Assembly: GCA_015233115.1 (NCBI GenBank)
Contig: JADFYJ010000005.1
Span: 86,359 to 150,358, forward strand
Reading direction: 5' to 3'
Source: Candidatus Omnitrophota bacterium
Lineage (GTDB): Bacteria > Omnitrophota > Gorgyraeia > Zapsychrales > Zapsychraceae
Length of the DNA stretch: 64,000 nucleotides
How positions within the stretch are numbered: the first letter of the stretch is position 1; each line of letters begins with the position of its first letter. Shown one piece after another: positions 38,655-63,706 of the stretch. The position numbers and the translations under genes were made by a program. A model generated the notes under the pieces. It ran no database searches, had not been told where the DNA came from, and worked only from the letters and a program-made list of their open reading frames with translations.

Positions 38655-38688
38655 AATAAAAACAGTATATGAAAAATTAAAAACTATA

Positions 38689-38816: not shown

Positions 38817-38840
38817 ACGATTCTTTCCCACTCATTGTTT

Positions 38841-39838: not shown

Positions 39839-39852
39839 ACGTTCTCCTTTTA

Positions 39853-43424: not shown

Positions 43425-43446
43425 CCTTCGCCCTTTCACTGTTATC

Positions 43447-46166: not shown

Positions 46167-47276
46167 TTACTTTACAACCTGCACATCAATATTAACTTTT
46201 TTGCCGCTTTCTGTTTGTGATTGATTTAAATCCCCTGACTTGTAACGCCCTTCATCAACCTTGACAGCTTGCCCACCTTTAAACAAAAATCCATTATTTC
46301 CCAAAACCGTACGAGCATGATCGCGTTCGCGTAAGGCTTTATGTTGAATTTCGTCTGCATCTTGCTGAAATTTGTGGATCTTTGATTTAACTAATCTCAT
46401 CCGGTCTTTGTAAAGGCGAATGAGTTCTTTTCCTTCAGGAATATTATTGATTTCACCTTCGTAATAACGGACTTTTCCATTTAATGTTTCAACTTCAGTC
46501 GTTAATTTTGCGTTTTTCTCATTTAACAATGCCAGATTTTGGTTAAATTCTTCTGTTAATTTAGCATTTTGCTCGGTCATTTGCCGGACTTGCTCCTGCA
46601 GTTGAGTATTTGCTGTTTTTTCTTGAGCTAATTGCTGTTGGGCCTGCGCCAACATGGTTTGAGTTTCCGCGAGAGCCGCTTTCGTTGTTGCCAGCTCTTT
46701 AGTAACCACTTCCAATTGTTGTTTAGTTTCTGTATACAATTGATGATAAGTTTGGGTTAATTTTGTCTGACCATCAATCGCTACTGTTAAATTTTGAGTC
46801 GTCTTGTTCAAACTGTTGTAAATTGAACCGCTGGTCCATACTGAATAAACCACAATCCACGCTAAAAAAATTGACGCAGCAACATTTAAAACAATCAGCC
46901 AGCCGCGCATTTTCTTTTCTTTTTCAATACCATCTTGAACTCGGCGGCGTAACGCATTCGCCAAATCTTCAGAAACATTTTCAAACTTAATGCCCCAATA
47001 ATGTTTGCTGTCATTTTTAGGTTTTGACCAGATCACGCGTCCTTGAGATGGAACAACACCAAAATCCCCTTCCTTGGCACGAAAATTAAAATTCCCGTTC
47101 ATACTTGAATCGTGTGGGGCATCAGTCTCTAACAACATGCCGGACGCACTAATGTTGCGCATACTGCCTTTTCCCTGAGCCGCCCCGCCCTCTTGCGACC
47201 AAAGAATATCTTTTTTTTCTTTTACGCGCACATCCATACGCGACTCGTTTAAAATAGTACTGACACGATTTGCCAT
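46167..47276 (-). CDS. membrane-anchored PilZ-domain c-di-GMP receptor with long extracytoplasmic coiled coil
   Basis: Strong RBS aaggagg. N-terminal PilZ motifs RxxxR (SRMDVR) and N/DxSxxG (NISASGMLLE); one TM (LIVLNVAASIFLAWIVVYSVW); then about 150 aa Q/E/K-rich heptad coiled coil plus about 70-aa C-terminal domain. Confidence 0.7.
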   Translation of the reverse strand: MANRVSTILNESRMDVRVKEKKDILWSQEGGAAQGKGSMRNISASGMLLETDAPHDSSMNGNFNFRAKEGDFGVVPSQGRVIWSKPKNDSKHYWGIKFENVSEDLANALRRRVQDGIEKEKKMRGWLIVLNVAASIFLAWIVVYSVWTSGSIYNSLNKTTQNLTVAIDGQTKLTQTYHQLYTETKQQLEVVTKELATTKAALAETQTMLAQAQQQLAQEKTANTQLQEQVRQMTEQNAKLTEEFNQNLALLNEKNAKLTTEVETLNGKVRYYEGEINNIPEGKELIRLYKDRMRLVKSKIHKFQQDADEIQHKALRERDHARTVLGNNGFLFKGGQAVKVDEGRYKSGDLNQSQTESGKKVNIDVQVVK

Positions 47277-47475: not shown

Positions 47476-49344
47476 TTATTTTAAAATTTTATCTAACAAT
47501 CCGTTAATTAAATCTTTGCCTGGCTTTTCATTTTGCGGCTCTGAAGTTGTCCCGGCTGGTTGAGCAGGCTGGCCGGAGGACTCTTGAGGATTTATTTTTA
47601 AAGCTTTATATATCAAGCCTTTAATTTCCTCTTTCCCTCTATTATTAATGTAGTTTTTAGCCACATCTTTCAAATCTGGAAAAATTTTAAATTTAACCGC
47701 TGGACCCTGATAAGGCTTAAATGGAAAATGCATGCGTCCATCTTGTTGCAATAAATATTTGAGATCTGGAGACGATCCTAATAATTCTCCTGACAATTCC
47801 GCATCCATATACATATCCATGGCAAAATTTAAATTTTGCGTGAGATCCATATCTCCGTTAAAATTCACTTCAAAGCCCTGAGCCTTGACCAAACCTTTGC
47901 TGAAAACCAATTTATTATTGGCAAATTGTAGATCTGAAGAAACCATTTCAAATTCCGTATCTTTTGAACCAAGATAGTTTTTATATTTTTCCGCAAGGTT
48001 AGCTTCTGCTTTAGCGCCCAAATTAGGAATAAATGAAACTTGATCCAACACGAATTTTAATAAATTGAAATCCAATATTTTCATGCCATCCACCCGCGCG
48101 TCGCCGTTAGCTCCCAAATTAGCAATTCCTACCCCGCTCATGGTCATTTTTCCGTTAATCTTTCCAGCTAATTTAAACGGCATTTTAAAAATAGACGTTA
48201 ATTCACCCAAATCAACCGCTTTTACTTCCGCGATTCCGCTTAACGTTTGCGTTTTTAAATAATCTTTTACATCTGCGTCAACAGTCACATGACCTTGAGC
48301 TAAATCCAGGGATACTTCTTTAACCAAGGCATCTTTTTCGTTCACTTCTGCCCTTAATTTAATATTTGAAATAGGATCTTTCAGCCATTCAGTCGCAATA
48401 CTGCCATCATCAATAGTAGCCCGGCTAACCAATTGGGATAAACCCTGCGGGCTTAAATCCAACGAATCCACATCAACCAGGGTCATCACTTTGGGACTTG
48501 CTTTCAGCTTAGCCGCGTCGATTTGTGGACACAATTTTTTTACACCGTCCATATCCAATTGACTCGAATCAATTTTAACTTTAATATTATGTAAACTGAT
48601 TTGACTCGTTTTTAAATCAATTTTAAACCCGCCTTCCGCCGAAACCAAAGGCTGTCCCTTAGTTAAAATATCCACACTCGCTTTAAATGGTACCCACTTA
48701 TCCAAACCAAAATCATTAACCTGAACATTAATATTATTAATCGCCAGCGCCAAAGGACCGGCGGTTTGTTTTTGCGCGTACAACACACTCCCATTGTCTA
48801 CTCTTATATTAGTAACTACGATATTAGGCATCGCGGCAGGAGCATTGGAAACATTTGTAGAAGGTTTGGTATTCGGCTGTGGCTGGCCCTGAGACTGTGC
48901 CTGCGACGGTACTGGTGTAGTTGGCTTATTATTCAATTGTTGCGCCAAATAAGTAAAATTATTCGAACCGTCTGCCAGCATAATAAAATGGATAACTGGC
49001 TTACTTAAAACCAAATGCGTCACAACTAATTGACGCTGAACAATCAAAGGCCAAATTTTAACACCCACTTCAACTGAATCTAGTTCAACTAAAAATGGAT
49101 TATCAAACAGTTTATCATCGGGCAGCTTAATCCCCTTTAACGCCAGCACAAACCCGTCTTTAAGCTTAAAATTCAATTCAATCTTCGACAATTCAATATT
49201 ACGCCCAACCGCTTCCTGAGCCTTAGCCACAATCACCGGTCTAAATTGATCAAAATTATAACACTTAAAAAAAACAAACAAGCCGGCAACCAAAACAACA
49301 CCCAATATGACCAAAACCCGTAAAACCATCGATAATTTTTTCAT
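47476..49344 (-). CDS. AsmA-family protein (AsmA/TamB-like envelope biogenesis)
   Basis: N-terminal signal-anchor (MKKLSMVLRVLVILGVVLVAGLFVF), then about 600 aa of beta-rich AsmA-like sequence with the family's N-terminal region (...RNIELSKIELNFKLKDGFVLALKGIKL...). Confidence 0.6.
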   Translation of the reverse strand: MKKLSMVLRVLVILGVVLVAGLFVFFKCYNFDQFRPVIVAKAQEAVGRNIELSKIELNFKLKDGFVLALKGIKLPDDKLFDNPFLVELDSVEVGVKIWPLIVQRQLVVTHLVLSKPVIHFIMLADGSNNFTYLAQQLNNKPTTPVPSQAQSQGQPQPNTKPSTNVSNAPAAMPNIVVTNIRVDNGSVLYAQKQTAGPLALAINNINVQVNDFGLDKWVPFKASVDILTKGQPLVSAEGGFKIDLKTSQISLHNIKVKIDSSQLDMDGVKKLCPQIDAAKLKASPKVMTLVDVDSLDLSPQGLSQLVSRATIDDGSIATEWLKDPISNIKLRAEVNEKDALVKEVSLDLAQGHVTVDADVKDYLKTQTLSGIAEVKAVDLGELTSIFKMPFKLAGKINGKMTMSGVGIANLGANGDARVDGMKILDFNLLKFVLDQVSFIPNLGAKAEANLAEKYKNYLGSKDTEFEMVSSDLQFANNKLVFSKGLVKAQGFEVNFNGDMDLTQNLNFAMDMYMDAELSGELLGSSPDLKYLLQQDGRMHFPFKPYQGPAVKFKIFPDLKDVAKNYINNRGKEEIKGLIYKALKINPQESSGQPAQPAGTTSEPQNEKPGKDLINGLLDKILK

Positions 49345-49429
49345 AAAATTCCCCAATCTTTTTTTACTATATTTGCAAAGCATAAAAGATAATTATTAAC
49401 ATTTTAAGGGTAAGCGTCAAGAAAAAAAA

Positions 49430-52400
49430 TTATTTAAGATATTTCCCGACATCTTTAAAAGTCGGGTCGATTTCGCGGATGGCGGAGAAAATGCGGCGGG
49501 ATTCAGCGGTGTTGCCTTTGGAGTTTAAATCCAGGGCTCTTTGATACATGCGGTCTAATTGGGAAGACAAATCCATTTGAACCTGTTTGCGGTCTACGTC
49601 AATTTCTTGCTGACGTTTCTTCATTAAATCCAATAATTGATCCCGTTGATCTTGGGCGTCTTGCAAATTGTTTTGATTTTGAATATCTTCCCGTTTAGCT
49701 TTGGGCTCGCCAGCAGCAAGGGCTTCGTTTGACTTTTGAATCTTTACGTCTTTTAAATTTACCGATTGTTCCAATTGACGTAAAGAGTCCCGGTCTTTTT
49801 GAAGTTGAGTTTCTTCGTGATTGATTTGTTTTTCAAGACGATCAAGATCCTGATCTTCTTTGTCTATCCGGCCTTGGTTATTTTTATCCTCTTTCCGGGC
49901 TTTTGCTGTATATTCGTTAATCCTTGTTTTATTCGCTTCCTTGACAATTTTCCGAATTTGCCGAGATTGTTGATCTACTTTTCGCTGCATATTCACGGTG
50001 AATTTATGATCCAAATTACCGTCGGCTAAAAGAGCATTGAGTACCCCAACTTTTTTCTCTGCCAACCTCACATCTTTTTGATCAACATAAGACAACAAAT
50101 CATTATATGCATCTGTCACATTGGCCTGTAAGTCTTTTTGAAGATCTACTTTTTCTTCAGCATGTTTAGCTATAGGAGCTTTTCCCATATTCACAGCCTC
50201 AGATAACTTAATCTTTTGAGCCGCTAATTTTCCCCGGATAGAATGAACAAAACGTTTATCAAGAGAAGGGTTAGCCAGCATCTTTTCCGTTTCATTAATT
50301 TTTTTCGATGCTAATTCGAGCTTTTGTTCATTGACCGAATCCACAACTTCGTCAAACTCTTGGCGCACATCATTTTGTAGATTGTTTTGGACAACAGCCA
50401 TTTTGACAGCATCGGACTGATCCGCTACCGTTGGTTCCGAAGCCGCCATCTTGGTTTCAGCAAACGATGCCATACCTGATGGTTTTAGAGGAACAACTTT
50501 TTTAACCTCCGGCCTGCTGACTGGTTTAGTAATTATTTCTTGAGTTTTATATTTTTCATCTGCTTCAACAGCTTTCAATACGTCATCACAACGCCGGATC
50601 ATTTTCGAAGCAGACTTATATCCAGGATATATTTTTTCTACTGAATTAAATTTAATCCGGGCACTTCTATAGTCACCCGCATTATAGGCTGACATAGCTT
50701 CTCTATATAAAACACCCGCGTCTTTCTGCCAACGTTTTAATTCAACAAAATCGGTTTTTTCTAACAACGAGTTAACTTTACTTTTTTCTTGCCGCAATAT
50801 TCTTTGCTGATTAGCCTCAGTTTCAATCTGTTTCTTTTTATAAATTTCAAGTTCCACCGCCAGTCTTCTGCGCTCTTCACTTCGATCATGCGCTTCAGCA
50901 CGTCGGATCTCACTTTGTGTTACCTGATTACCGCTGTCCTGAGGCTGTGATTTCGAGATCTGAGATGACGGAGAATTAACCACTTCCTCTTTTCTGGCTG
51001 GGACAATTTTTTCAACTTCAGCTGTTTTTTTCGCTTCTTCTACTAAATGGACAGCTTCGCGCTCATTTTCAGCTATTGCTAATTGTTGTTCAGCACAAAA
51101 TTCTGTCAATGCATCTAATTCCACGCTCATATCTTCTTCTATCAACTCCGGTGGTTCAGCCATATCTGGGACAGCATTAGTTAAAATATCGCGCTCAAGC
51201 GCTTTGGTTAAACGATTTTCCTCTTTAGATCGCAACTTGGCAACCTGCCCGTTATTACGTTCTTTGGCGTCAATTTCCTTTCGGAACTGGGCATACTGCA
51301 TATCCCGGATATGTTCCCGGGCATTTTCTTTCGCTTTAAGTGAAGCAATCTGAGCCACAGATCCTGAAACATATCCATCTAATTGTTCACGATCCAACCG
51401 ATGCTCTTCAGTCGCCTTGGTTTTTGCTTCATTGATTTGCTGTGCTTCAGCACGAATGGCCTGATTTATTTTACTAATATATTCATCAATATTTTTATGT
51501 CTGCCCGGGACTGTTGCTTTAGCTAAATAAAATTTCCTTTTCGCTTGAACAAATTGTGACGCATTGTAAAATTCAACCGCTTGATCAAAATATTTATCAC
51601 ATAATTTATCTGAGTCCATGACTTCCGACGTTTCCAGACTGCCCCTCTTATTTTCCACGATCTGGTTTTTAACTTTTTGCTGTTCTAAAGCAACCTTAAT
51701 CAATTCTAAATATCGTTGTGACGAGCGATATCCGGGACTTTTAAATTCAACCAGATTGAATTTTTCACGAGCGATTTCATATTCTTGAGCTTTATATAAA
51801 GAAACAGCTTCAAAATACATATTCTCAATATCTTTGTCATTTAACGATTGCGCGACCTGAGGTTCAGACAAAACCGACGGAGCACTGGTTGGAACAGATA
51901 CTGGAGGCAAGACCACCGGATTTTCCCCTGGCCGTGCCTTCTCTATATACTTCTTTTGTTTCTCAAGAAGCTTATCAATTTTGAGAAGATATTTTTCTGT
52001 ATCCCGGTAATTCGGTTTCATCGTATTCACATCTTCAAAAATTTTCTTTGACCGTTCGTACTGTTTAGCCCGATATAAATCAATACCGTGCTGATAAACC
52101 TTGTTCAATGACTGCGAATCAACATTAGTAAAATCATCGTGTTCGGAAATGGAATGAGAGGATGAAGCAACCGGTGGAACAGGATAATTTTGGTTGATCA
52201 CGGGCTTAACGCCTTTTTCTTTTCCAATGGTATCGTCAATCTTCTTCAAATATTTCGCGGTCTGTTTATACTGCGGACTTAAACGCTCGACCTGATTAAA
52301 ACGGGTCCGGGCTAAAGGATAATTCTTATTATCAAACAAAGAAACCGCGGTCGTATAAATCTCATCTATCTCTTTTTGAATGGCTAAGGGAATTTTAGCT

Positions 52401-54307
52401 TTAACGCCTTGTTCAAATTTATTTTTTTCCCACGCGCCTTTATTAACCTCAGGTTGAAATTGATTCGATTCCTCATCGATCTTTTTTAGATAATCAGCGG
52501 TATCTTTATAATTTGGGTAAACCGCTTCAACCTGAATAAATTTCCTTTTTGATTCGGAAAAATTATTTTCTTTAAAAAATTTTAACGCTAATTGATATTT
52601 TGTTTCCGCTTCTTCAGTGAACTTTAACTTGCGTTCCTCGATAGCTTTCTGTACAAACATATTCTCTGCTTGCGCGCCGGTCAAAACGGGAGAAACTTCC
52701 AGCCCTTTCCCGCCTTTTAAAGCTTTTTTATTTTGGCCGACCGCTTTATTCGTCTTAACCTCAGGCAAGTTAGGCTCATATCTAGCTTTTTTCAGGCTAT
52801 ATTCTGGCTTAACCGGAACCGGCACACCTGTCGCTTTGCTGATCAAGTTAAGATAATTATTGGTGGCCTTATAATTAGAATAAAGTTCCTTAACCTGCAA
52901 AAATTTTTCTTGCGCCAGAGCATATTTTTTCTGATCATAAAAACGCAGAGCCTCAATATAAAGCTTTTTGATTTCTTCCCCATTAGTCCGCAGCGATTCT
53001 TTATCTTCCCAATCTTGAATTTTTTTAAGGAACGAACGTGTCGCTTTATATTCCGGAGCAATCGCTTCTACAGAATCAAATTGAATTTTGGCCTTGGTAT
53101 ATTGCTGCAAATTAAACAAGGCAACAGCCCCTTCATAAATAAATTGGGCTTCATCATAAATACGTTTTTGAGTTTTCTCGTCAGTTAAAGCTTCTTGCTT
53201 CTCCTTAGTCGCTTCTTCCTGCTTATCATCAAGCCGCTCTTCACGGACTTGCTTTGAAAAGAAGGTAACCTTCTCATCATTCGTCAGAATTTTTCCATCC
53301 TGCGGTCCTTGCGCGTTTAATTTGGCCAGATACCGCTGAGTAAATTTATAATCCGGCACGATCCATTCCACTTCTTTAAACCGTTCTAAGGCCTGAGTAT
53401 ATTGTCCGATTTTATATAAACGGATCGCTTCCGTATAAAACTTTTCAGCTTGAACCACGGATTTATGCTGACGGTCTTTTTCTTCTGAGTCTATTTTTTT
53501 ACGCCACTCTTCTTTTTTCTTGCGGGCGGCATCCGTCTGATCTTTTAATTTTTTCTCGATGATCTGGGCTTGATCTTTTTGGATCTCCTGATCAATAACC
53601 ATGAGATAACTGCGGGCGGCTTTGTAATCCGGAAACATTTCTTCGACGGATTCAAATTGTTCTTTCGCGGGGAGATATTTGGCTTGTTGAAAAAGCTTTA
53701 CAGCAGCTTCATAAACTTTATCCACTTCCTTAGCACTAAAACCGCGTTCTTGTTCAAGTTGCTTTATACGGGTATTTTCTTCTTCAGCCAAAACTTTTTC
53801 TTGTTTTTTAAAACGGCTCGAACTGATCCCGATATATCCCTTCATTTCCGGATGTTCGGTAATCTTAATCGCTTTATCCCAATATTCGCGTGCCTGATCA
53901 TATTTGCCGTCCTCATAAAACTGCATAGCTTTTTGATAATACTCGCGGGCTTTTTCTTCGCGTTGTTGATTCCGCCGGAACTTAGCCTGTTCTTCCAGCT
54001 TCACATTAACTTTTTCAATCTTCGCTTTAGAACGTTTAATCAAATCTTTAATATTTACAACAAAACCATCTTCGGTTTTTTCTTCGCGCAAAGTTTTTTC
54101 TTTATTGATAAGAGCTGGTGCTAACGCGGGCAGAGTTGTTTTTTCAATAGACGAATCTTGCGGCTGGACTACTCCGGCAGGGGTCAGATCGGCAACAGCC
54201 GACGTCGAGGTTTTCGCGGCAGGCCCAGCGGCGAAAACTATCCTCGCCGAGAGCGTAAACGCAAACCCCAATGAAACGATCAATAAAGTGCGGTTGAGAC
54301 CTCTCAT
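49430..54307 (-). CDS. giant (1625 aa) secreted repeat protein: signal peptide plus at least 14 copies of an about 70-100-aa TPR-like unit with charged coiled-coil linkers
   Basis: SP MRGLNRTLLIVSLGFAFTLSARIVFA. Recurring unit such as YYQKAMQFYEDGKYDQAREYWDKAIKI / VYEAAVKLFQQAKYLPAKEQFESVEEMFPDYKAARSYLMVI / IYDEAQFIYEGAVALFNLQQYTKAKIQFDSVEAIAPEYKATRSFLKKI. Confidence 0.8.
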   Translation of the reverse strand: MRGLNRTLLIVSLGFAFTLSARIVFAAGPAAKTSTSAVADLTPAGVVQPQDSSIEKTTLPALAPALINKEKTLREEKTEDGFVVNIKDLIKRSKAKIEKVNVKLEEQAKFRRNQQREEKAREYYQKAMQFYEDGKYDQAREYWDKAIKITEHPEMKGYIGISSSRFKKQEKVLAEEENTRIKQLEQERGFSAKEVDKVYEAAVKLFQQAKYLPAKEQFESVEEMFPDYKAARSYLMVIDQEIQKDQAQIIEKKLKDQTDAARKKKEEWRKKIDSEEKDRQHKSVVQAEKFYTEAIRLYKIGQYTQALERFKEVEWIVPDYKFTQRYLAKLNAQGPQDGKILTNDEKVTFFSKQVREERLDDKQEEATKEKQEALTDEKTQKRIYDEAQFIYEGAVALFNLQQYTKAKIQFDSVEAIAPEYKATRSFLKKIQDWEDKESLRTNGEEIKKLYIEALRFYDQKKYALAQEKFLQVKELYSNYKATNNYLNLISKATGVPVPVKPEYSLKKARYEPNLPEVKTNKAVGQNKKALKGGKGLEVSPVLTGAQAENMFVQKAIEERKLKFTEEAETKYQLALKFFKENNFSESKRKFIQVEAVYPNYKDTADYLKKIDEESNQFQPEVNKGAWEKNKFEQGVKAKIPLAIQKEIDEIYTTAVSLFDNKNYPLARTRFNQVERLSPQYKQTAKYLKKIDDTIGKEKGVKPVINQNYPVPPVASSSHSISEHDDFTNVDSQSLNKVYQHGIDLYRAKQYERSKKIFEDVNTMKPNYRDTEKYLLKIDKLLEKQKKYIEKARPGENPVVLPPVSVPTSAPSVLSEPQVAQSLNDKDIENMYFEAVSLYKAQEYEIAREKFNLVEFKSPGYRSSQRYLELIKVALEQQKVKNQIVENKRGSLETSEVMDSDKLCDKYFDQAVEFYNASQFVQAKRKFYLAKATVPGRHKNIDEYISKINQAIRAEAQQINEAKTKATEEHRLDREQLDGYVSGSVAQIASLKAKENAREHIRDMQYAQFRKEIDAKERNNGQVAKLRSKEENRLTKALERDILTNAVPDMAEPPELIEEDMSVELDALTEFCAEQQLAIAENEREAVHLVEEAKKTAEVEKIVPARKEEVVNSPSSQISKSQPQDSGNQVTQSEIRRAEAHDRSEERRRLAVELEIYKKKQIETEANQQRILRQEKSKVNSLLEKTDFVELKRWQKDAGVLYREAMSAYNAGDYRSARIKFNSVEKIYPGYKSASKMIRRCDDVLKAVEADEKYKTQEIITKPVSRPEVKKVVPLKPSGMASFAETKMAASEPTVADQSDAVKMAVVQNNLQNDVRQEFDEVVDSVNEQKLELASKKINETEKMLANPSLDKRFVHSIRGKLAAQKIKLSEAVNMGKAPIAKHAEEKVDLQKDLQANVTDAYNDLLSYVDQKDVRLAEKKVGVLNALLADGNLDHKFTVNMQRKVDQQSRQIRKIVKEANKTRINEYTAKARKEDKNNQGRIDKEDQDLDRLEKQINHEETQLQKDRDSLRQLEQSVNLKDVKIQKSNEALAAGEPKAKREDIQNQNNLQDAQDQRDQLLDLMKKRQQEIDVDRKQVQMDLSSQLDRMYQRALDLNSKGNTAESRRIFSAIREIDPTFKDVGKYLK

Positions 54308-54365: not shown

Positions 54366-57300
54366 TTATTCTATCACACCCTTCTTAGCATCTTCCAGAA
54401 GTTTCTCTAATATTTTCTTAGCTTTTTCATATTGCCCAGTGCGGTAATAATCGTCTGCCTTTTGTTTCATATCCACCAATTGTTTTTCCTGCGCAACACG
54501 GGTCCGAATATAGGAAGCGGCCTCTTCATACATCATCTGCCCGGTTAATACAATGTCGCGATAGATATCGAAAGACTCTTCCCAACTGCCGCGATTGGCA
54601 GATTTTTGCGCTAATTTATAATAGGTGTTGAGCTCCTGCATAATAGGACTTTGCGGATTAGACAATTCCTGTTCAACCATGGCCCAGGCCCAATGACTAA
54701 TCTTTTCCTCAACCCAACGGTCATTGGAGCGGGCAATTTCATCCGGAGTCCGGTCATAAAATTTACCTGTCAGACGGACAAACGGGCCGCGAGACGCAAA
54801 GCTTAATGACGTAAGATCATCATTATAATCCGTAAAATTAAAGCCAACGCCTAATTGCGCGAAATCGTTCAACCGGCGTGCCGCCTCGATCAAGAAGCCG
54901 GATTTCATATCCCGTGATTCATGTTGAGCTAAAATCCTGAATTCTCCGCCGATCATCCAGTCGCGGTCAATCTTATAATTAATACGGTGAATCATCAACC
55001 ACGTATGGGTGTTAGTAAAATCAAATCCGGCCACTTTTTCCTTGGCCATCCGGTACGCGAATTTTTCTCCCACTTGCCAATGTTCGTCAATATCATACAA
55101 ACCTTCGGCGGAGAAAATATCCGCGATGCTCTGTTGAATATCCGAATTCGTAGCGTCCGCCTGACTGGCCGGAGACTGTTCTTCTTTGTGGGTCACTTCA
55201 CCAATCAAATTTAATTTATCCATCATCAAAGGACGATAGGCCGCGCCTAAGGTCACTTGATGCAGCATGGCGATCGTTCCCGTACCAATTGACGGGATAC
55301 CCGTTGAGGTTAAAGTTGTTTCCTGATCCATATTTTGGGAATTCGTATATTGCCCTTTCGCGTAAAGGGTCAATTCCGGCGACACTTTACCCTGCGCGGA
55401 GGCGTAAACCAAATATTGATTCATATCCGAACTTCCCGTATCCTTGCGGTATTCCGCTTTAACCGACGAGGTCAGCACTTTTTCTCCGGTCTGTTCATCC
55501 GCCTTCGCGTATCCAACACCGAGGGTATACGCGTCACGATCCGTGATTGTTCCGTTGTAATTCTGCACTTTGCCGCGTTCATAACTGCCCGACAGCGCCC
55601 AGCGATCACCAATATCCCCGGTTAAACCAAAAATATTAGACTGAGTAATGGAATCCGGCGCGTCCGCTAATTGACGGGTTAACGTTCCCTTTAAACGCAC
55701 ATTGTCTTTCTCCCGAACCAAACCGTATTCATCACCCGTCGACTTTTGACTGCCGGCTTGACCAAAAGACCGCGTCGTCAACATAGATACTTCACTGTTT
55801 AATTTCTTTTCTGTTCCAAACGTCAACTTAGTATCTTTGCCGTCACGCGTCGTATCGGCCACCGATATCCCGCTGGTCGTCGTCGTATTAGGATCCACTT
55901 GAGACCGCCCGCCAAAGGTCATCACCATATCCTGATCCAATGAATTCGTCGCGTAGGATAATTTCGACTCAACCGCACTGTCTCGATCGATTTGAGACTT
56001 GCCTCCAAAACTCACTAATTTTTTGGGTTCTTTATCCTGCAAATCTGTTAACCCCACATCTGTTTCGATTTTGTTTTTCTCATTCGGACTATATTCCGCG
56101 CCGACCGTGGCCTGATTCTGGCCCAAAGCCGTATTATACGTTTGCGAAGTGGCACCGGTAGACGTAGATATAGACGGATTAGCCGCGATATCATAATTAG
56201 CTTTTAAGACCAGCTTGCCTGCTGTGACCGACTTGTTGACATCATATTTGGCCGCCATTTGCGCGGAAGCGCCCATCTGGCCATTAGTATATTTTAGATC
56301 AACGGTGGTTTTATCAGTGGGTTTAATCGTGGCGCCGACAGTGTTTTGATCATTAGGCGTTCCGGATAAGGTCTGTTGTCGTCTGGCCATCACACTCAAC
56401 TTATCATTGACTTGATAATCAGCCTGAAACGCCAGCAGGGTCCCTTGGCCCGGAGAAGCAAAGGTGGTATCTCCTGGGCTTAAAGCATTGGCCGCTTGGT
56501 TAGAAAACTCAGCCGTCAAACGGAGTTTGCTGTTGACATCATGCACAATTTGCGCCAAGGTCGTCGTAGTCTTTTGCCCTCCGACCTGCAGTTTGGTTTG
56601 CGTGCTCCCTCCGTCTAGTAAAGTCTGAATATCATGCCGTAACCTTAAACGGGTATGATCCGTGATATCATACGTCGCGGCTAAAGAAACCAACTCTTTG
56701 CCTTGCTGGGCCGTCGAATCTGTGGTCGAGAAATTATTATCAATCCACCGATATGCGGCCGTCAGACCTAGACGGTTAAACAACGTCGCGTCGCCGGAAA
56801 TCCCATACGCTTTATTTTTAGATCCAGCTGGAGCGCTGACGCTCGTAAAGGATAAACCACCGTCCGTAGATAAATATGTATCCTGGGCATTGGATGTCGT
56901 TTCCGCGACCTCCGCTTTAACTTTGGCGTTATCGCCGACATGCAAGGTCGCGTCTGTGCCGGTCAATTGATAATTGCCGCCCTGTTGTTCTTCCTTGACA
57001 TATGTTTCCCCAATGATCAAATGATTTCCAATCGCTTTAGCCAGACGGGTTCCTTCGCTGGCCTCATTCATCGTGCCAGAGACGCTGTACGCGTAATCCG
57101 CGACTACATACACCAGGTTTCCGTCAAGAATATTATTCGACACAATCGATGTTGAGGTCACAATCTGCGGCACCGGCCGCCAGAATATAACCCGGCCGCT
57201 CGGATAATCAATATCATAGTCTGACCCTTCCTTTAAATCCTGAGTACTGACGACAACACCCGTCACGCGATCGCGGACTTCCGCGCGAATCTTGTCTGAA

Positions 57301-60300
57301 CCTTCCACGACTTCTTTATTTTTTAGATAATACAATGATGTGCCAGTGGCCAAAAATTCGTTATGCGCGGTCTTTTGATGTGCCTGTGCGTAAAACACCA
57401 CCGCCTTGGTATCAGGCTCGCCGAATTTGGTCGTTCCTAAAGATTCCAGATCCACCTTGCCGCCGTAATAACTCCGGGCAAAACGGGCAAAATCGGTATC
57501 TTTAAAATCAATTGAGTAATTGCTCCATTGGGCGCTGGATTTATCCCATTCCACCAATAAATATAACGGCCCTTGCGTATCCGTCGCTGAATAATTGATG
57601 GATGAATTGTCCCCATAAACCGGGTAGAATTTATCCGGATCCAATTTCTTGAATAAAGCGCTGTTTTGACGGTCGGTATCTAAACTTGATGTGATCAAAT
57701 ATTTCCCAAGAATTTTTCCCTTCAAATAGTACGCAGCCCGTCCCTGACTATACAAGCCGGTATTATATTGATCCGCCGGGCTGACCGCTTCCATATTGCC
57801 TTTGTTAAAATTATATCCGACTTTTTCATCTCCCATACCGACGAGAAACATATAATTTTCACCGACTCGCACATTTTTGACATACGTTTTCCCTCCGATA
57901 ACATTATCGCCCGGGGCAGCGGCCAAAGGAATTCCAGTCGGAGAAACCAGTGTCCCAGCCGGCAAAGCCGGTGCTCCGAGTGTTGGTATAACATTTACGG
58001 GTGATGCCCCTTCAGCCGGTACAGCGGGTATCCCTTCTTGCACCAGAAAATCATAATTTCCGTTAGGCATAATCAATCTGATCGTATTGATGTCGTCCGC
58101 GACTTTACCATTAAGAACATCCTGCGCTGTAACTTTTGTTCGCGTCGTTAAAGGCACATCCATTTCCAACCTGCCATCTTTTTTGATCTGGATCGACTTT
58201 AAGTTACCAGCCAATTTACTGATGACCACCATCTCTCCATTCAAACTAATGGACTGCTTGGCGAGATTATTTGTCTCCGACGCTTGCCGTACCCAATCCG
58301 CGTAATTCGTAGGATTCAGTTTTGTGTCAGCCTGAGTTTCTTTATCTAAGCTCAACTTGGTAATATCACGGGCATCCTCTTGTGCTTGCTTTTGCCGGGC
58401 AAATTCATCCACATCACGAAACACAATCGGACGAATCTTGGTTTCATCCGTACGGTTATGTTCGTCTTTCGCGATAAAATAATATTCATAATCTTTTTTC
58501 ACATCGATATACCGGCCCATTTGATCTTTCCCGTCCCAAAATATCGGATCATCTATCGTATACCGGTCGCCCTCGAATTTCTTGACCAAACTCTTGGTGT
58601 ATTTATCCTGGATAATTAATTTCCATTGACTGATAAAAAGCGGATAATTCGTGAATATCCTAAACTCTACTTTATTAAGGAATATTCCATCACGAATATC
58701 GATTTGATTGCCAAACATATCCGCGTTCAATAACGGCACTGGAACAGTCTGGTCTTTCTGAACTGTAACATTTTTCATAAAGAATTGCGCGTCGTCACTC
58801 TTGAACCGGCCATAATCCATGTTCACACCAAAATTCACTTTATTGATCATGCCGTTGGTCACATCAATAATGACCGCTTTATCTGTCGTCAAATACGCGC
58901 CTTCCGGTAAGGTCCGTTCATCCAAGCGAACCACGTGGCGTCCAGGAGTTAAGCCCGGAATACTAAACTGTCCATTTTTATCCGTCGTGATAACTGTACC
59001 GTCTTCCATGGCCAACGTCACATTTGGCACAGGCTCTTCACGGATCACGTCTTGACCCATAGCGGAATATTCCGGAGCATCTTGAATACCATTTTCATTC
59101 TGATCCCAGAACACTTTTCCGATAACAGTTCCCATATCGAACAACGGATCCATCGCCACTTTAATATTAACCCTGGAGGTATTGGATAATTTAGTACCAT
59201 TACGATAAACCGCTTGCGCTTTATTTTCATATGTTCCCGGAACCACTCCTGAACCAACCACTAATTGATATTTTAAAGTCCTGGCCATGCCGGGAGTCAT
59301 TTTATGATCAGCGTTACCGATATAAAACATCAAAGGCCGGTTCCCAATCGGGTCAGCCGTCGGAAGGCCGTCTAAAGTCACCCGACCCGGCAAGAATTTA
59401 AATCCAGGAGGTATGATATCTTTTAAATACGGGTCAATAATATCATTGCTGCTAATACTTTCCATCTTCACGGTGTAGGTCGCAACTTCGCCCACGTGAA
59501 TTTGATTTTTATTAACGGATTTCTCGATCTTAATCAAAGTACCCGCTGAATCCACCGGCATATCCAACTGCATCACATTAGCGCCGACAGTAAAATGTTC
59601 ACCCAATGACCCGGTTGCCACAGTACGTCCGGCAGGGAATGTCTTTTCAACGGATGGGAAGTCATACCCGTTCACTTCAACCTTAATGTAATAATCACCA
59701 GGGGCAGCCAGGAAACTATAATATCCGTCGGCTAAAGTCGTGACCGGATTGGTATCCGTCACAGATAATTCTATATTGTCAGTCTTAGCCGGTAGATTCG
59801 TCGCGGCATTATAAATAGTGACCACAGCGCCTTTGATCAAATGATCAGATACAGAATCAAAAACATACCCGAATGGATCAACTAAAGAAACTGTGATGAT
59901 CCGGCTCGCTACCCCATCGCTCACCGCAACCAATTTTATAGCCCCTCTGGTCAAATCTGTGGTCAATATACCAGAATATGCTGTTCCACCAGCATTCTTA
60001 ACCAAGCTTCCCACTTTTTGCAACAGCAAGTTATGGGCAGCCGCGTCATCTTGCGCCAAAATATCAACCAAAACTGACGGAGTATCCGCGTTACCTGACA
60101 CCACCGGCCTAGGACTATTGACGCGGTCTGCCATAGCTGGAGAAACAATGACCGGCACTTGCTCAACAGTCGGGTTAGCGACGACTACAATTGGACGGTC
60201 AATGTATTTGATAAAAGCACCAGGATTAATTGGATCCGGCGCGTATAGCCTGAGCGCGTTTGCTCCAACAGCTAACTGCATATTGGAATACAAAGCCTTG

Positions 60301-63300
60301 TTCGGATCTTTTATATTAAGAGCGTCATTCGGGGCATTCTGGATGACAAAATTACCATTTGCATCCGTCGTAGCTCTGCCGATCTCATTGTCTGATCCGT
60401 CCTTGACTATCACCAATGTACCAGCAATTGCTGACCCGATGACTGTTACATACTGTCCAACCGTCTTTCCTGTGAAAGGATAATTGATATTCAAATTCAC
60501 AAAATTCCATTTAGGATTCGGGTTGACCACGTCATTATTTCCCAAATTCGTACACATGTTACAAATCAAATCATTTCCTGGCGCGCCCAGTACATCCGAA
60601 TCCTGCACTTTCAAATTCTGGGTAGACAAACCTGCCGCCAATAAATTCAAATTCCAAGTTCCTGGAGATGCGGTTGAAAGCAGACTTGTATACCCGGTTG
60701 TATCCCCATTGATGCCCTCAGTTCCGCGGACATTAAATGACCCGCCCACCGCAATAGTCTGAGTTGACCCGGCCGCAAATTTGATCGTCTTGGTGAGTTC
60801 ATTAGAATAAAGTGAATAAAACGTTGTGCTTCCGGTGATGGTCGCCGTACTTGCGGTATTAAAATTAATTTCACCAGTTCCAGGTGTAAATAAGCCCGGA
60901 TTGGTTCTGGTAAAACTTCCGGCGATTTTAAAGGTATTATGATTGTTCGCGTCAATAGTGGCCGGCGCTTTTAATTCACCGCCGGTGATGCTGACATCAT
61001 GCAGAACAGCTATTTTTCCGTTTACCGCGTTTAATATGCCATTAGTCGCAGCCGCACCATTCAACAGCAAATCATGGCCCACCGTCAAAAGGTTAGACGC
61101 ATTTGAAGTATCTAGAGAACCATTGGTAATCGTTAAATCATGATTAACCACCAAATCCGCAGTCGTGCGGTAATTATCCGGTACAGCGTTTATGTCATTG
61201 AGGATTAAATTATAATATGGAATATTAAGGATAGTACGCTGATTCAATACCCCATTATTGTCTCCAGTATAAATAAAGGTTCCACGGAATCCGGCATCAA
61301 CCTGAATAGTCGGAGTTTCTGTTCCCAGCATTTTGATCGTCCCATCATCAACACCCGCGGCATTATTGAATATTTTCCCAGTCATGATAATGTTGATGCC
61401 ATTTAAAGTCACGACAGCGCCGTTCGCGACTTTTAAATCTACGATCGAAACCGGTGTAGCCAAAGTAGGCTGATTCGGCACATTCGGAATCTTCGCGCCA
61501 TCTATTGGTCGAGGAATAAAGCCCAGATCCCAGTTCAAAGGATCATCCCAGCTCGTACCATTAGAACCATTCCAGACATCTTCGGCAGGACCAAACAACC
61601 AATTCGTATTATTGCCGTTAATTTGCGTTGAATTCGACGGCACCAAAAGAACACCAGCGTCAGCACGGCCTTTAACATTAGAGTCTCTCACGTCCAGAAA
61701 ATCCAAATCCTGGATGCCGTGGAATTTAAGTTCAAAATACGCCTGCGTGGTTGGCGCTGAACTGTTAATAGAAAGCAGATTTCCTGCGGCACCTTTTAAC
61801 GTCAATTGATGCGCAATCAATGGCGAATTGGCTTTGGCCACCGTGGTATCAAACGTTAAAGTTGCTGGGACTGCTGTTGTTTTTGTCAAATCATAGAAAT
61901 TCGTATTAACCGCGGAAATAGTTTGATTAACACCATTTAAGAGCACTAAACCGCCATTCGCGTTAAAGTTGTCGCTCGTCACATTCCCGCCATTGGAAGT
62001 AAAATTCCCCTGCACAGAAAATGTTTTTCCTAACCCCGGAGCGGTAAAGGTACCCGCGGTCATCACAAATGATCCATTATTCCCTGCAGAATCTTTGTTC
62101 ACCACAATATTACCGTTACCAGCCGTGAAGACTCCGCCACCCATATTCAAATTCCCGCCCACGCCGGTCGCGTTAGCTACTGTTAAAGTTTTAGCGTTCG
62201 TGGAAATATCAAACGTGCCTTTGGTCAAGGTCAAAGAACCGAAAATATTTAGATTCTTGTCAATGATGAATGTATCGGTCGCATCAGCGTTATTAATAAT
62301 CACATTGTAATAATCCATCTTCACATCGCCAAAATTCGGCTGCGGCAGAGTACGCGTGGTATTTGTATTTACACCATCACCAGTAAACGTAAACGTACCA
62401 GCGTCTTTATTGGACGTCGTAATGTGTAATTGATCAATAAAACCCCATAAAAGAACATTACCGCTATTCGACAGATTAATGATCGTCGCTTTAAAACTGT
62501 TAAAATTAATGGTCGCGCCAGCTTGAACGCTCATTGTTCCTACATTAATATCCCCCGTCAAAACCGGTTGGACACCCCCAGAGCCAGTTACGTTAGGTAT
62601 GATGACATTGTCCCCAACAAAAGGCACAATACCTAAATCCCAGTTGGCAGCCACATTCCAATCTGAAGATGTGGTTCCCTTCCAGGTCAAAGTTCCCGTA
62701 TTAAATACCCAATGCGGACTGGGCTGAAGAGTGTCATTGCCGCCCACATCAATGGAATTACGCGCCACCATATCCAAATTCGCTGCGTTGCCATTTTTAA
62801 CTTTTAGATATTGCAGAGCCTGAGAACTGCCATTATTCATATTTACTGTAAACTGCACCGGAGTTCCATCATCATCATTACTGTTTAAAGACAATTCTGT
62901 TCCTACCCCTGTTCCTTTTAACGTCAATGTCCCCGCCACATACTGAATGCCAGTACTGTCAAATATCAACGTATCAGTCCCAATTTTATTTAAATTGTAA
63001 AACGCGTTGGTTGTCCCCAGCACAGACTGATTATTTCCAACTAACGTCACAGTAACGTTGGTTCCAATAAATGTCGCTGCTGCTGCCCCGGTCCAGTTTC
63101 CGGTTACATTCATATTCTGGCCATTCATGTCAAAAGTGCCTGCTGTATTAAAAAATGAGCCACCGATCACAGCCAAACCATTATTTAATTTCGCGGTTCC
63201 GGTACCGGTATGACTTAAATTATAAAACGAAGTATTAGGAAGATTAAGAGTTTGAATACCTGCTGGAGCATATAATTTAAACGTACCCGCTGTCGGAGTG

Positions 63301-63536
63301 TATGTCCCGTTGTTGGTCCAATCCCCGGTTAAGCCGACGGTGCCTGTCGTCGTAGAAATCGTCCCGGCATTGACAATACTCCCGGCCACATTCAACGTAT
63401 CATTATTAATTTTAACAGTAGACCCGGCAGGAATATTTAGGCCCTGAGCAAAACATAAAAAAGAAAGTCCGCTGATAAGAAATAATATCAGCAGAGCATT
63501 GCGAAAAAATGAAGTAAAAACTTTTTTCCCGAGCAT
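54366..63536 (-). CDS. giant (3056 aa) outer-membrane protein: signal peptide, about 1000-aa T/N/G-rich beta-helix-like repeat region, Ig-like / CarboxypepD_reg-like / DUF11-like domains, about 800-aa C-terminal beta-barrel, then about 130-aa TPR-like tail
   Basis: SP MLGKKVFTSFFRNALLILFLISGLSFLCFAQG. Repeats like NVTGNWTGAAAATFIGTNVTVTLVGNNQSV. Domain-like segments (VTIYNAATNLPAKTDNIELSVTDTNPVTTLADGYYSFLAAPGDYYIKVEVNGYDF; IEKSVNKNQIHVGEVATYTVKMESISSND). Long run of amphipathic beta-strands ending ...LGVGFNFTDY...FVRLTGKF. Tail YYRTGQYEKAKKILEKLLEDAKK. Confidence 0.8.
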   Translation of the reverse strand: MLGKKVFTSFFRNALLILFLISGLSFLCFAQGLNIPAGSTVKINNDTLNVAGSIVNAGTISTTTGTVGLTGDWTNNGTYTPTAGTFKLYAPAGIQTLNLPNTSFYNLSHTGTGTAKLNNGLAVIGGSFFNTAGTFDMNGQNMNVTGNWTGAAAATFIGTNVTVTLVGNNQSVLGTTNAFYNLNKIGTDTLIFDSTGIQYVAGTLTLKGTGVGTELSLNSNDDDGTPVQFTVNMNNGSSQALQYLKVKNGNAANLDMVARNSIDVGGNDTLQPSPHWVFNTGTLTWKGTTSSDWNVAANWDLGIVPFVGDNVIIPNVTGSGGVQPVLTGDINVGTMSVQAGATINFNSFKATIINLSNSGNVLLWGFIDQLHITTSNKDAGTFTFTGDGVNTNTTRTLPQPNFGDVKMDYYNVIINNADATDTFIIDKNLNIFGSLTLTKGTFDISTNAKTLTVANATGVGGNLNMGGGVFTAGNGNIVVNKDSAGNNGSFVMTAGTFTAPGLGKTFSVQGNFTSNGGNVTSDNFNANGGLVLLNGVNQTISAVNTNFYDLTKTTAVPATLTFDTTVAKANSPLIAHQLTLKGAAGNLLSINSSAPTTQAYFELKFHGIQDLDFLDVRDSNVKGRADAGVLLVPSNSTQINGNNTNWLFGPAEDVWNGSNGTSWDDPLNWDLGFIPRPIDGAKIPNVPNQPTLATPVSIVDLKVANGAVVTLNGINIIMTGKIFNNAAGVDDGTIKMLGTETPTIQVDAGFRGTFIYTGDNNGVLNQRTILNIPYYNLILNDINAVPDNYRTTADLVVNHDLTITNGSLDTSNASNLLTVGHDLLLNGAAATNGILNAVNGKIAVLHDVSITGGELKAPATIDANNHNTFKIAGSFTRTNPGLFTPGTGEINFNTASTATITGSTTFYSLYSNELTKTIKFAAGSTQTIAVGGSFNVRGTEGINGDTTGYTSLLSTASPGTWNLNLLAAGLSTQNLKVQDSDVLGAPGNDLICNMCTNLGNNDVVNPNPKWNFVNLNINYPFTGKTVGQYVTVIGSAIAGTLVIVKDGSDNEIGRATTDANGNFVIQNAPNDALNIKDPNKALYSNMQLAVGANALRLYAPDPINPGAFIKYIDRPIVVVANPTVEQVPVIVSPAMADRVNSPRPVVSGNADTPSVLVDILAQDDAAAHNLLLQKVGSLVKNAGGTAYSGILTTDLTRGAIKLVAVSDGVASRIITVSLVDPFGYVFDSVSDHLIKGAVVTIYNAATNLPAKTDNIELSVTDTNPVTTLADGYYSFLAAPGDYYIKVEVNGYDFPSVEKTFPAGRTVATGSLGEHFTVGANVMQLDMPVDSAGTLIKIEKSVNKNQIHVGEVATYTVKMESISSNDIIDPYLKDIIPPGFKFLPGRVTLDGLPTADPIGNRPLMFYIGNADHKMTPGMARTLKYQLVVGSGVVPGTYENKAQAVYRNGTKLSNTSRVNIKVAMDPLFDMGTVIGKVFWDQNENGIQDAPEYSAMGQDVIREEPVPNVTLAMEDGTVITTDKNGQFSIPGLTPGRHVVRLDERTLPEGAYLTTDKAVIIDVTNGMINKVNFGVNMDYGRFKSDDAQFFMKNVTVQKDQTVPVPLLNADMFGNQIDIRDGIFLNKVEFRIFTNYPLFISQWKLIIQDKYTKSLVKKFEGDRYTIDDPIFWDGKDQMGRYIDVKKDYEYYFIAKDEHNRTDETKIRPIVFRDVDEFARQKQAQEDARDITKLSLDKETQADTKLNPTNYADWVRQASETNNLAKQSISLNGEMVVISKLAGNLKSIQIKKDGRLEMDVPLTTRTKVTAQDVLNGKVADDINTIRLIMPNGNYDFLVQEGIPAVPAEGASPVNVIPTLGAPALPAGTLVSPTGIPLAAAPGDNVIGGKTYVKNVRVGENYMFLVGMGDEKVGYNFNKGNMEAVSPADQYNTGLYSQGRAAYYLKGKILGKYLITSSLDTDRQNSALFKKLDPDKFYPVYGDNSSINYSATDTQGPLYLLVEWDKSSAQWSNYSIDFKDTDFARFARSYYGGKVDLESLGTTKFGEPDTKAVVFYAQAHQKTAHNEFLATGTSLYYLKNKEVVEGSDKIRAEVRDRVTGVVVSTQDLKEGSDYDIDYPSGRVIFWRPVPQIVTSTSIVSNNILDGNLVYVVADYAYSVSGTMNEASEGTRLAKAIGNHLIIGETYVKEEQQGGNYQLTGTDATLHVGDNAKVKAEVAETTSNAQDTYLSTDGGLSFTSVSAPAGSKNKAYGISGDATLFNRLGLTAAYRWIDNNFSTTDSTAQQGKELVSLAATYDITDHTRLRLRHDIQTLLDGGSTQTKLQVGGQKTTTTLAQIVHDVNSKLRLTAEFSNQAANALSPGDTTFASPGQGTLLAFQADYQVNDKLSVMARRQQTLSGTPNDQNTVGATIKPTDKTTVDLKYTNGQMGASAQMAAKYDVNKSVTAGKLVLKANYDIAANPSISTSTGATSQTYNTALGQNQATVGAEYSPNEKNKIETDVGLTDLQDKEPKKLVSFGGKSQIDRDSAVESKLSYATNSLDQDMVMTFGGRSQVDPNTTTTSGISVADTTRDGKDTKLTFGTEKKLNSEVSMLTTRSFGQAGSQKSTGDEYGLVREKDNVRLKGTLTRQLADAPDSITQSNIFGLTGDIGDRWALSGSYERGKVQNYNGTITDRDAYTLGVGYAKADEQTGEKVLTSSVKAEYRKDTGSSDMNQYLVYASAQGKVSPELTLYAKGQYTNSQNMDQETTLTSTGIPSIGTGTIAMLHQVTLGAAYRPLMMDKLNLIGEVTHKEEQSPASQADATNSDIQQSIADIFSAEGLYDIDEHWQVGEKFAYRMAKEKVAGFDFTNTHTWLMIHRINYKIDRDWMIGGEFRILAQHESRDMKSGFLIEAARRLNDFAQLGVGFNFTDYNDDLTSLSFASRGPFVRLTGKFYDRTPDEIARSNDRWVEEKISHWAWAMVEQELSNPQSPIMQELNTYYKLAQKSANRGSWEESFDIYRDIVLTGQMMYEEAASYIRTRVAQEKQLVDMKQKADDYYRTGQYEKAKKILEKLLEDAKKGVIE

Positions 63537-63541
63537 TAAGA

Positions 63542-63594
63542 AAATGTGACAATGTTAAAATAGTAATTGTCATCCCCGAGAGCTTGAATCGGGG
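63542..63594. repeat. TGTGACAAT inverted pair (atgtgacaatg...attgtcat) plus GC hairpin ccccga-gagcttgaa-tcgggg immediately upstream of the giant OMP gene start
   Basis: Read from sequence. Confidence 0.6.
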
Positions 63595-63706
63595 ATCCGT
63601 GGTTAAATATATTAGTAATATATTAATTATATACTACCAAATCACCACACCAGCTCAAGCACAGATTGAAAAATTTTTGCTTTTATTATATTAAGGAAGG
63701 ATTTTA

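Follow-up and report, generated by a model that had tools for sequence, protein, structure and literature searches.

The window analysed here, the whole 64,000-nucleotide stretch from Candidatus Omnitrophota bacterium (assembly GCA_015233115.1, contig JADFYJ010000005.1, positions 86,359 to 150,358), carries on its minus strand a giant gene at 54366..63536 that encodes 3056 amino acids (aa) plus the stop codon. The open reading frame (ORF), taken from the ORF listing, starts with ATG, has no internal stop over 9.2 kb and is identical to NCBI entry MBF0478661.1, a protein from an Omnitrophota metagenome-assembled genome (MAG) annotated as 'hypothetical protein HQL26_04190 [Candidatus Omnitrophica bacterium]'. 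The original prediction, made from the letters alone, had proposed an intact giant ORF of a kind found in the Omnitrophota, with a passenger followed by a barrel, and this much was confirmed: translation, Pfam and AlphaFold2 (AF2) give the order signal peptide, beta-solenoid, Ig-like stalk, conserved 1043-aa module and 130-aa helical tail. Our results favour, if only somewhat, the reading that the protein belongs to a surface display system that resembles autotransporters and is anchored by a giant barrel not homologous to theirs.

The N-terminal half has the appearance of a stalked surface protein. A Sec-type signal peptide (aa 1-30, 63447..63536, minus; MLGKKVFTSFFRNALLILFLISGLSFLCFA/QG), read by eye from the translation, has a basic n-region and a hydrophobic core and then CFA-Q. 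The head that follows (aa 31-1010, 60507..63446, minus), assigned from AF2, Foldseek and repeat mapping, is a predicted beta-solenoid. Its AF2 model (aa 30-1010, 29-sequence alignment) has a mean predicted local distance difference test score (pLDDT) of 81.6 and contains only strands of 3-5 residues with tight turns between them. The head is made up of three divergent repeats of ~350 aa, each closing with a W..G....W....NWD.G..P motif; they are visible only through shared homologs, and BLAST self-comparison at E 1e-3 found no internal repeats in the head. The beta-helix-like passenger proposed earlier is compatible with the model, but no Foldseek match was significant, the best having E=0.15. 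Among the Foldseek matches listed, none of them significant, all are beta-helices (Ag43, Hap, EspP, IgA protease, PL6 lyases and tailspikes). Only 17 homologs of the head were detectable, some of them with TPS, PATR or Cthe_2159 domains.

The Ig-like domains and the DUF11 domain that had been anticipated are matched by both Pfam and NCBIfam (TIGR01451) in a CnaA/CnaB-type stalk (aa 1011-1575, 58812..60506, minus), which comprises Big_6 (aa 1031-1069), CarboxypepD_reg (aa 1223-1294), DUF11/CLIPPER (aa 1335-1444; Pfam and TIGR01451) and an SpaA/SdrD_B-like domain (aa 1502-1567). Curated matches are confined to this middle part of the protein, and Pfam and NCBIfam gave nothing at aa 1-1000 or aa 1575-3056. 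In the available text of PMC12617251, proteins that have CLIPPER (DUF11) stalks together with an 'OmpA-like anchoring domain' are regarded as putative fibrillar surface adhesins. Between the stalk and the module lies a junction (aa 1576-1883, 57888..58811, minus) that has no Pfam match and is made up of a FlgD-Ig-like beta domain, a charged helix and a linker rich in Pro and Ala. Relatives have an OmpA-like domain at this site: the relative P0104 has FlgD_ig at 658-715, OmpA at 748-843 and Glucodextran_B at 1028-1102 in the equivalent place, and the junction in the window is ~190 aa shorter than that of P0104.

The conserved module covers aa 1884-2926 (1043 aa), and ~730 aa of it form a meander of long strands. 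In the AF2 model of aa 1860-3056 (53 sequences, 1197 aa; pLDDT 70.5, predicted template modelling score [pTM] 0.62), ~56 strands are followed by four long helices. The first ~300 aa (aa 1884-2199, 56940..57887, minus), delimited by alignment conservation, AF2 and covariation, form a compact beta domain that is the best conserved and most confident part of the module, with a pLDDT of 80-95. It is not a simple meander, and covariation links its non-adjacent model strands 87-94 and 328-340 (z ~8); it may be a plug or docking domain. The remainder (aa 2200-2927, 54756..56939, minus), which ends in ...GPFVRLTGKF(Y), contains ~38 consecutive predicted strands of 9-16 residues each (AF2/DSSP) and is the putative barrel wall. 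Counting back from the C-terminus, turns of 2-4 residues alternate with loops of 9-23 residues in the classical porin pattern, in a register that agrees with a periplasmic C-terminus. A dyad pattern of hydrophobicity is seen in many strands, in the query itself as well as in the average of 225 homologs. The model of the C-terminal part is accordingly a long-strand meander rather than the soluble beta-sandwiches that would have spoken against a barrel, and with a meander of ~730 aa the earlier estimate of an ~800-aa barrel was reasonable.

The position of the last strand was also correctly predicted. The motif ...FVRLTGKF marks the end of the module, 140 of 226 homologs stop within three residues of it, and in 109 of these 140 the terminal residue is Y, F or W, the usual beta-signal. 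Foldseek matched the module to outer-membrane barrels, namely TonB-dependent transporters, SlpA, MtrB, LptD, SprA and ushers (FimD), and also to the ApoB100 beta-belt. No global structural match was obtained, the Foldseek TM-scores being only 0.1-0.18. A search of the PDB sequences with the protein and with the family profile returned no barrel relative, only stalk domains and a chitoporin at E ~0.14, and the module falls outside every Pfam, NCBIfam and PDB sequence family; Pfam 2025 and NCBIfam 2026 hold no curated name for it. Taken together, the loop pattern, dyad strands, aromatic end and fold matches fit a generic outer-membrane beta-barrel of the type handled by the barrel assembly machinery (BAM). 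The suggested likeness to LptD or SprA holds for size, in that the structural neighbours (SlpA, MtrB, LptD, SprA, ushers) are the largest barrels known, but not for family membership.

The number of strands calls for some caution. An insertion of ~100 aa with ~5 predicted strands (aa 2439-2539, 55920..56222, minus), located from the gap profile of the 225-sequence alignment, has no counterpart in ~85% of homologs and was modelled with a pLDDT of 21-50. If this insertion is real, the strand number would vary within the family; extrapolating from the shorter module, typical members would provisionally have ~30-34 strands. Covariation (ridge inverse covariance, 225 sequences, effective number 144) was of modest power, adjacent strands averaging only z ~2.5, and model strands 563-575 and 679-689 were found to covary (z 5.6) in the homologs that lack the insertion. 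SprA, with 36 strands, is described as the largest known single-chain barrel, and SlpA as having 30 (10.64898/2026.03.07.710327). With ~38 predicted strands here and perhaps 30-34 in typical members, the module would lie within or above the SlpA-SprA size range and, as had been proposed, far above the 12 strands of type Va barrels.

The module defines a large family. Searches of 50%-identity cluster representatives gave 2572 relatives at E<=1e-3 and 846 at E<=1e-30, and at least 570 module loci came to light when one genome per species was scanned. These occur in Omnitrophota, Brocadiia, Elusimicrobia, Nitrospirota, Acidobacteriota, Gemmatimonadota and Deltaproteobacteria, and in cultured Gammaproteobacteria (Stenotrophomonas, Lysobacter, Halopseudomonas, Leucothrix and Kangiella); the family is also present in Vibrio campbellii and on Sinorhizobium plasmids. 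The module is C-terminal in every case, on proteins of 560-7612 aa, and the N-terminal cargo is diverse, including PQQ beta-propellers, metallophosphoesterase, Calx-beta, Pmp repeats, PKD and NosD-type beta-helices. A constant module behind variable N-terminal parts amounts to a pattern of constant anchor and variable cargo. Nearly all of 69 loci have a DUF11-SdrD_B block ahead of the module, either in the same chain or in the gene immediately upstream. The window protein has the same trait, a C-terminal module of ~900-1040 aa after a DUF11-SdrD_B block, and at 39-50% identity to its clade relatives it stands as an unexceptional member of the Omnitrophota clade within this unnamed family, which is not described in the literature searched (giant Omnitrophota proteins, DUF11, Big_9 adhesins and barrel strand counts). 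Elsewhere in the family, a cassette resembling a diversity-generating retroelement, with an FGE-sulfatase/C-lectin-type target candidate, bAvd and a reverse transcriptase, lies directly upstream of the giant-barrel homolog P0006 (L003:6633-9934; GCA_041643015.1 JBGGHJ010000018.1), and a bAvd-like ORF is found near a related locus (L005:539-892).

The fused arrangement seen in the window is one of two. In more than 20 gammaproteobacterial loci the module is encoded by a stand-alone ORF of 1210-1270 aa (~1220 aa) that has its own signal peptide and ends at the module end. Directly upstream is a giant protein with a Sec signal, carrying Big_9, cadherin and DUF11 repeats, then an SdrD_B domain and finally a canonical OmpA-like C-terminus (...GHTD..G...YN..L..RRA.AV). 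Adhesin and barrel are the only two conserved genes in these split loci. RefSeq records show the same pairing on plasmids: on the accessory plasmid of Sinorhizobium meliloti T073 a 3362-aa 'DUF11 domain-containing protein' overlaps by 4 nt with a 1261-aa 'hypothetical protein', and in Croceibacterium atlanticum a plasmid-borne 2037-aa 'OmpA family protein' (OmpA at 1947-2012) is followed by a 1232-aa 'hypothetical protein'. In PLSDB the adhesin-barrel pair was found on 25 plasmid or chromid records, with conjugative ones such as S. meliloti T073 plasmid accessoryA (L090) among them, and the system is therefore horizontally mobile. Fused Nitrospirota versions have the OmpA domain just before the module, and Nitrospirota relatives also have Big_1 and Invasin_D3 domains. 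The fused and two-gene forms together span at least eight phyla as well as plasmids of culturable Proteobacteria, and their relationship links the barrel functionally to giant stalked proteins.

Stand-alone barrels are labelled 'hypothetical protein' or 'TonB-dependent receptor' in NCBI and UniRef, the latter label being found in Stenotrophomonas and several Alphaproteobacteria (L086:8999-12664; P0294, P0307, P0310 and others). Those tested had no Pfam domain (Stenotrophomonas, Sinorhizobium and Croceibacterium) and no NCBIfam domain (Stenotrophomonas and Halopseudomonas), and as no Plug or TonB_dep_Rec domain is present, the receptor label is probably a misannotation.

What sets the Omnitrophota-centred clade apart is its C-terminal tail (aa 2928-3056, 54369..54755, minus), which follows the last strand and consists of four helices (AF2 model positions 1072-1193, pLDDT ~90). 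It starts with YDRTPDEIARS...W..HWAW, a conserved YDRTPEEIERAR..W...WAW motif, and has a pair resembling tetratricopeptide repeats (TPRs) at its end. Of 226 homologs, 49 have the tail, and all of these belong to this one clade, within which the junction sequence is also kept, as a junction query against the loci revealed. A TPR-like tail of about this length had been predicted, and the 130 aa and four helices bear this out, but the likeness to TPRs is weak: Pfam found no TPR in the window tail, and faint TPR matches appeared in a few orthologous tails. Similarly, the claim that the tail motif corresponds to the repeat unit of the downstream protein holds for the last helix pair, with one local match of 20 aa at E=0.002, and not for the rest of the tail. 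Some other members have longer extensions past the last strand (L040:12596-14941, +781 aa; L024:2950-3663, +237; L059:12614-13237, +207), and these are unrelated to the Omnitrophota tail.

The downstream gene (49430..54307, minus) encodes MBF0478660.1, a secreted protein of 1625 aa in which Pfam and NCBIfam point to ~12 BamD/YbgF-like TPR pairs together with charged coiled coils. A homolog of this TPR protein lies directly downstream in 17 of 19 distinct tail-bearing loci, the window included, versus 0 of ~58 tail-less loci. Since the tail clade lacks the OmpA domain and the window junction is ~190 aa shorter than that of P0104, we infer that the tail and its TPR partner replace OmpA in anchoring or assembly.

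From the domain order, the barrel-type fold, the family, its fused and split arrangements and the co-occurrence of tail and partner, all computed here, we infer membrane insertion, topology, surface exposure, the role of a plug and contact between tail and partner as follows. The giant protein would be exported by Sec, and its module would be inserted in the outer membrane as a barrel of ~38 strands, presumably through recognition of the aromatic-ended last strand by BAM, with the ~300-aa conserved beta domain acting as a plug or docking site. The solenoid head would be exposed outside the cell on its isopeptide-type Ig/CLIPPER stalk, and, much as autotransporters do, the chain would run either through the barrel or alongside it. 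The junction before the barrel would remain in the periplasm, where in most lineages an OmpA-like peptidoglycan-binding domain would bind it to the wall, and in the Omnitrophota clade the tail and the dedicated secreted TPR/coiled-coil partner would presumably take over periplasmic anchoring or assembly. The barrel would thus be the protein's own outer-membrane anchor and conduit.

Several observations weigh against this reading. The localisation and secretion of the giant protein are deduced from its sequence, the head model has no significant counterpart in the PDB by Foldseek (best E=0.15), and the association of tail and partner comes from a single clade, so that shared ancestry could explain it. 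Equally, the position of an OmpA-like domain between Ig domains and barrel could be a sign that the N-terminal part lies wholly in the periplasm. On that account the protein would be a structural porin or an envelope tether like SlpA/OmpM that staples the outer membrane to peptidoglycan, or scaffolds the periplasm, and displays nothing outside. Such a tether would be in keeping with relatives in which the OmpA-like domain sits just N-terminal of the barrel or ends the upstream protein, and with the tail and TPR partner, both predicted to be periplasmic. We nevertheless consider it doubtful, because the N-terminal parts, 1900-6700 aa long, are built from modules of the adhesin type (beta-helix, cadherin, Big_9 and isopeptide CLIPPER stalks) that are hypervariable between lineages, and such arrays are typical of surface proteins and too long for the periplasm; in addition, the available portion of PMC12617251 treats OmpA-ended CLIPPER proteins as surface fibrillar adhesins. 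A different objection concerns the module itself. Closure into a single barrel and the strand number are predictions from DSSP output, a pTM of 0.62 and fold-search matches; ~14 of the predicted strands lie where the pLDDT is <50, and the last strand has no clear covariation partner (best z ~3; strand 1, z 1.9). The module might therefore form two tandem barrels (aa 1884-2434 and ~2530-2926) or a sheet that closes by oligomerisation, with the count of ~38 strands being an AlphaFold artefact, a version that overlaps with the display system on function. In most homologs the HMMER match falls into two stretches with a variable middle between them, this middle is where the pLDDT falls below 50 and where the query has its 100-aa insertion, covariation gave no closure partner and Foldseek also matches the ApoB100 beta-belt. 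Even so, the pTM of 0.62 applies to the whole 1197-aa model, the hairpins with alternating short and long loops run unbroken across the middle, and the covariation of strands 563-575 and 679-689 in insertion-free homologs (z 5.6) is as for a continuous meander, which makes anything other than one closed barrel unlikely in our view.

The remaining alternatives seem weaker. A general translocon or channel for polysaccharide, for lipid (via the AsmA-like neighbour) or for other proteins, as SprA is, with the adhesin part as an accessory, could draw on LptD and SprA among the Foldseek matches, on a glycosyltransferase gene upstream and a polysaccharide deacetylase gene nearby, and on the AsmA/TamB-like gene (47476..49383, minus; 635 aa; Pfam AsmA and DUF748) that follows the TPR gene. 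An AsmA-like gene is found further downstream in 11 of 19 tail-bearing loci versus 0 of ~58 tail-less loci, and none was found in any scanned locus outside the tail clade. It is part of a longer conserved synteny block with PilZ, YgjP and YqeY, and as these are conserved past it, the AsmA link is weak and we gave less weight to a functional partnership with AsmA. Across phyla the barrel has a single invariant partner, the giant protein ending in DUF11/SdrD_B, and a general translocon is very unlikely. It is harder still to credit an artefact of assembly or annotation in which two or more genes were merged by a frameshift or misassembly. The orthologs in L004 and L007 are indeed broken into 2-3 ORFs, but these contigs, judged from their names, are 2-3.5x nanopore assemblies, and 13 other, independent MAG loci have single colinear ORFs of 2316-4326 aa, which argues against a frameshift or assembly artefact just as the 9.2 kb without a stop in the window does; we therefore rejected a gene-fusion artefact. 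We thus return to the barrel-anchored display system as the reading that we favour.

Directly upstream of the ATG, the 5' leader (63547..63596, minus) contains the two elements noted in the original prediction, both recognised by sequence reading: an inverted repeat, TGACAAT-N12-ATTGTCA, at 63547-63572, which ends 10 nt from the ATG, and a GC hairpin with an 8-bp stem, ATCCCCGA-N9-TCGGGGAT, at 63572-63596. A consensus scan called the hairpin neither a terminator nor a promoter. The reported lack of a Shine-Dalgarno sequence was correct, as no such motif was found before the ATG by sequence reading, but it is not unusual: 21 of 38 mechanical ORF starts in the 64-kb window lack one too, so that its absence is ordinary for this genome and was rejected as a special trait of the giant gene. 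A hairpin followed by a T-run that resembles a terminator was flagged within the signal-peptide coding region (63468-63495, minus) and is probably a chance match. Nearly all window ORFs of at least 150 aa lie on the minus strand and the GC skew is negative throughout (1-64000, -0.08 to -0.30), which fits a single replichore with a strong gene-strand bias.

Beyond the AsmA-like gene lies a gene for a PilZ-domain (cyclic di-GMP receptor) protein with a coiled coil (46167-47276, minus), found at the same position in eight related Omnitrophota loci. Its position hints at control of the surface system by cyclic di-GMP, and may equally be plain synteny. Farther along the minus strand are an ORF of 1129 aa without a Pfam match (40137-43526), which has a 66%-identical ortholog at the syntenic place in L004, and a MoxR (AAA_3)/DUF58/VWA/BatA operon of the 'aerotolerance' (Bat) type (36147-39887).

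The interest of these findings lies in the family rather than in the window protein. No mechanism by which OmpA-ended, Sec-exported giant Ig-repeat adhesins cross or attach to the outer membrane is described in the literature searched, and the large barrel is the only gene that we found conserved beside such adhesins in the loci compared. We suggest, tentatively, that the module may represent a distinct and previously unrecognised class of outer-membrane machine for protein display or secretion. If so, more than 30 strands of a single chain would make up one barrel that is not homologous to the Omp85, autotransporter, usher or SprA barrels, and the Omnitrophota protein, at ~38 strands, would equal or surpass SprA, the largest known so far. 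The lumen of such a barrel would leave room for a folded isopeptide Ig stalk to pass through or sit in it, and the barrel would hold giant adhesins at the surface, with periplasmic OmpA, or here the tail and its TPR partner, fastening the complex to the cell wall. A barrel that is both conduit and anchor would add a new branch to autotransporter-like secretion logic, extend the known size range of single-chain barrels, raise the question of how BAM and the translocation and assembly module (TAM) assemble them and offer a way to approach surface biology in uncultured Omnitrophota, Brocadiia and Nitrospirota. Since the family is present in Stenotrophomonas, Lysobacter, Vibrio campbellii and Sinorhizobium plasmids, the hypothesis can be tested by genetics and cryo-electron microscopy.

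Among known systems, SprA/Sov, the translocon of the type IX secretion system, is likewise a very large single-chain barrel and is among the Foldseek matches, but Pfam and NCBIfam detect no sequence similarity and the TM-scores to 6h3i, 6h3j and 8gl8 are 0.11-0.18. In addition, the host is not one of the Bacteroidota, no type IX genes were present among the scanned neighbours and no C-terminal domain signals were found, and the cargo is fused or adjacent rather than recruited. LptD was matched by Foldseek at E ~1e-6, with TM-scores of 0.11-0.15 when normalised to the query and up to 0.28 when normalised to the target, whereas neither Pfam nor NCBIfam matched its OstA/LptA-like jellyroll or its 26-strand barrel. 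Deinococcus SlpA and Veillonella OmpM resemble the family in combining a large barrel with a periplasmic element that anchors it to peptidoglycan; the window protein differs in having no SLH domain or coiled-coil stalk and in its adhesin-like, hypervariable N-terminal part, and only 410 of ~1040 residues superpose, at 8.9 A. A TonB-dependent receptor is not indicated either, as neither the window protein nor any stand-alone homolog tested gave a match to Plug (PF07715) or TonB_dep_Rec.

Stalk chemistry is shared with the OmpA-ended CLIPPER adhesins such as Acinetobacter silvestris B9T28_05395 (PDB 9IFR; available text of PMC12617251), which have the DUF11/CLIPPER and SdrD_B/CnaB-type domains. 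Their terminal 'OmpA-like anchoring domain' is also that of the adhesin gene upstream in the split systems, and 9IFR is matched by the family profile. No barrel partner is described for them in the portion of PMC12617251 available, and the window protein, in contrast, lacks OmpA and is fused to its barrel.

The type V systems offer parallels in architecture. Like the type Va autotransporters Ag43, Hap and EspP, the window protein has a Sec signal, a predicted N-terminal beta-solenoid passenger and a predicted C-terminal barrel in one chain with a terminal aromatic beta-signal, and autotransporter passengers are among the nearest folds of the head, although not significantly so (best E=0.15). 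It departs from them in that Pfam gives no PF03797 match (E<=0.1), in having ~38 predicted strands instead of 12, in the conserved 300-aa domain before the barrel wall and the helical tail after the beta-signal, and in the Ig/CLIPPER stalk and, in relatives, the periplasmic OmpA domain between passenger and barrel. The resemblance to an autotransporter proposed originally is therefore one of architecture and not of membership in that or any other named barrel family. The proteobacterial form, split into adjacent genes for a giant Sec-exported exoprotein and a dedicated barrel, recalls the TpsA/TpsB systems of type Vb; here, however, the gene order is cargo then barrel, the cargo ends in an OmpA-like domain and lacks the TPS domain at its N-terminus, and searches of the window protein, the stand-alone barrels and their partners gave no match to Omp85 (Bac_surface_Ag), POTRA or TPS. 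With type Ve (intimin and invasin) the family shares a peptidoglycan-binding periplasmic domain, a barrel and an Ig-repeat passenger, with Big_1 and Invasin_D3 in the Nitrospirota relatives, but the order is reversed, with the passenger N-terminal, no IAT_beta or LysM match was found and the barrel is ~3x larger. The window protein does not have the defining features of the autotransporter, Omp85/TpsB, IAT_beta, SprA, LptD, SLH-porin or TonB-receptor families. By analogy, the logic of the system nonetheless resembles that of type V secretion, the fused form being akin to type Va, the split form to type Vb and the peptidoglycan-binding junction to type Ve.

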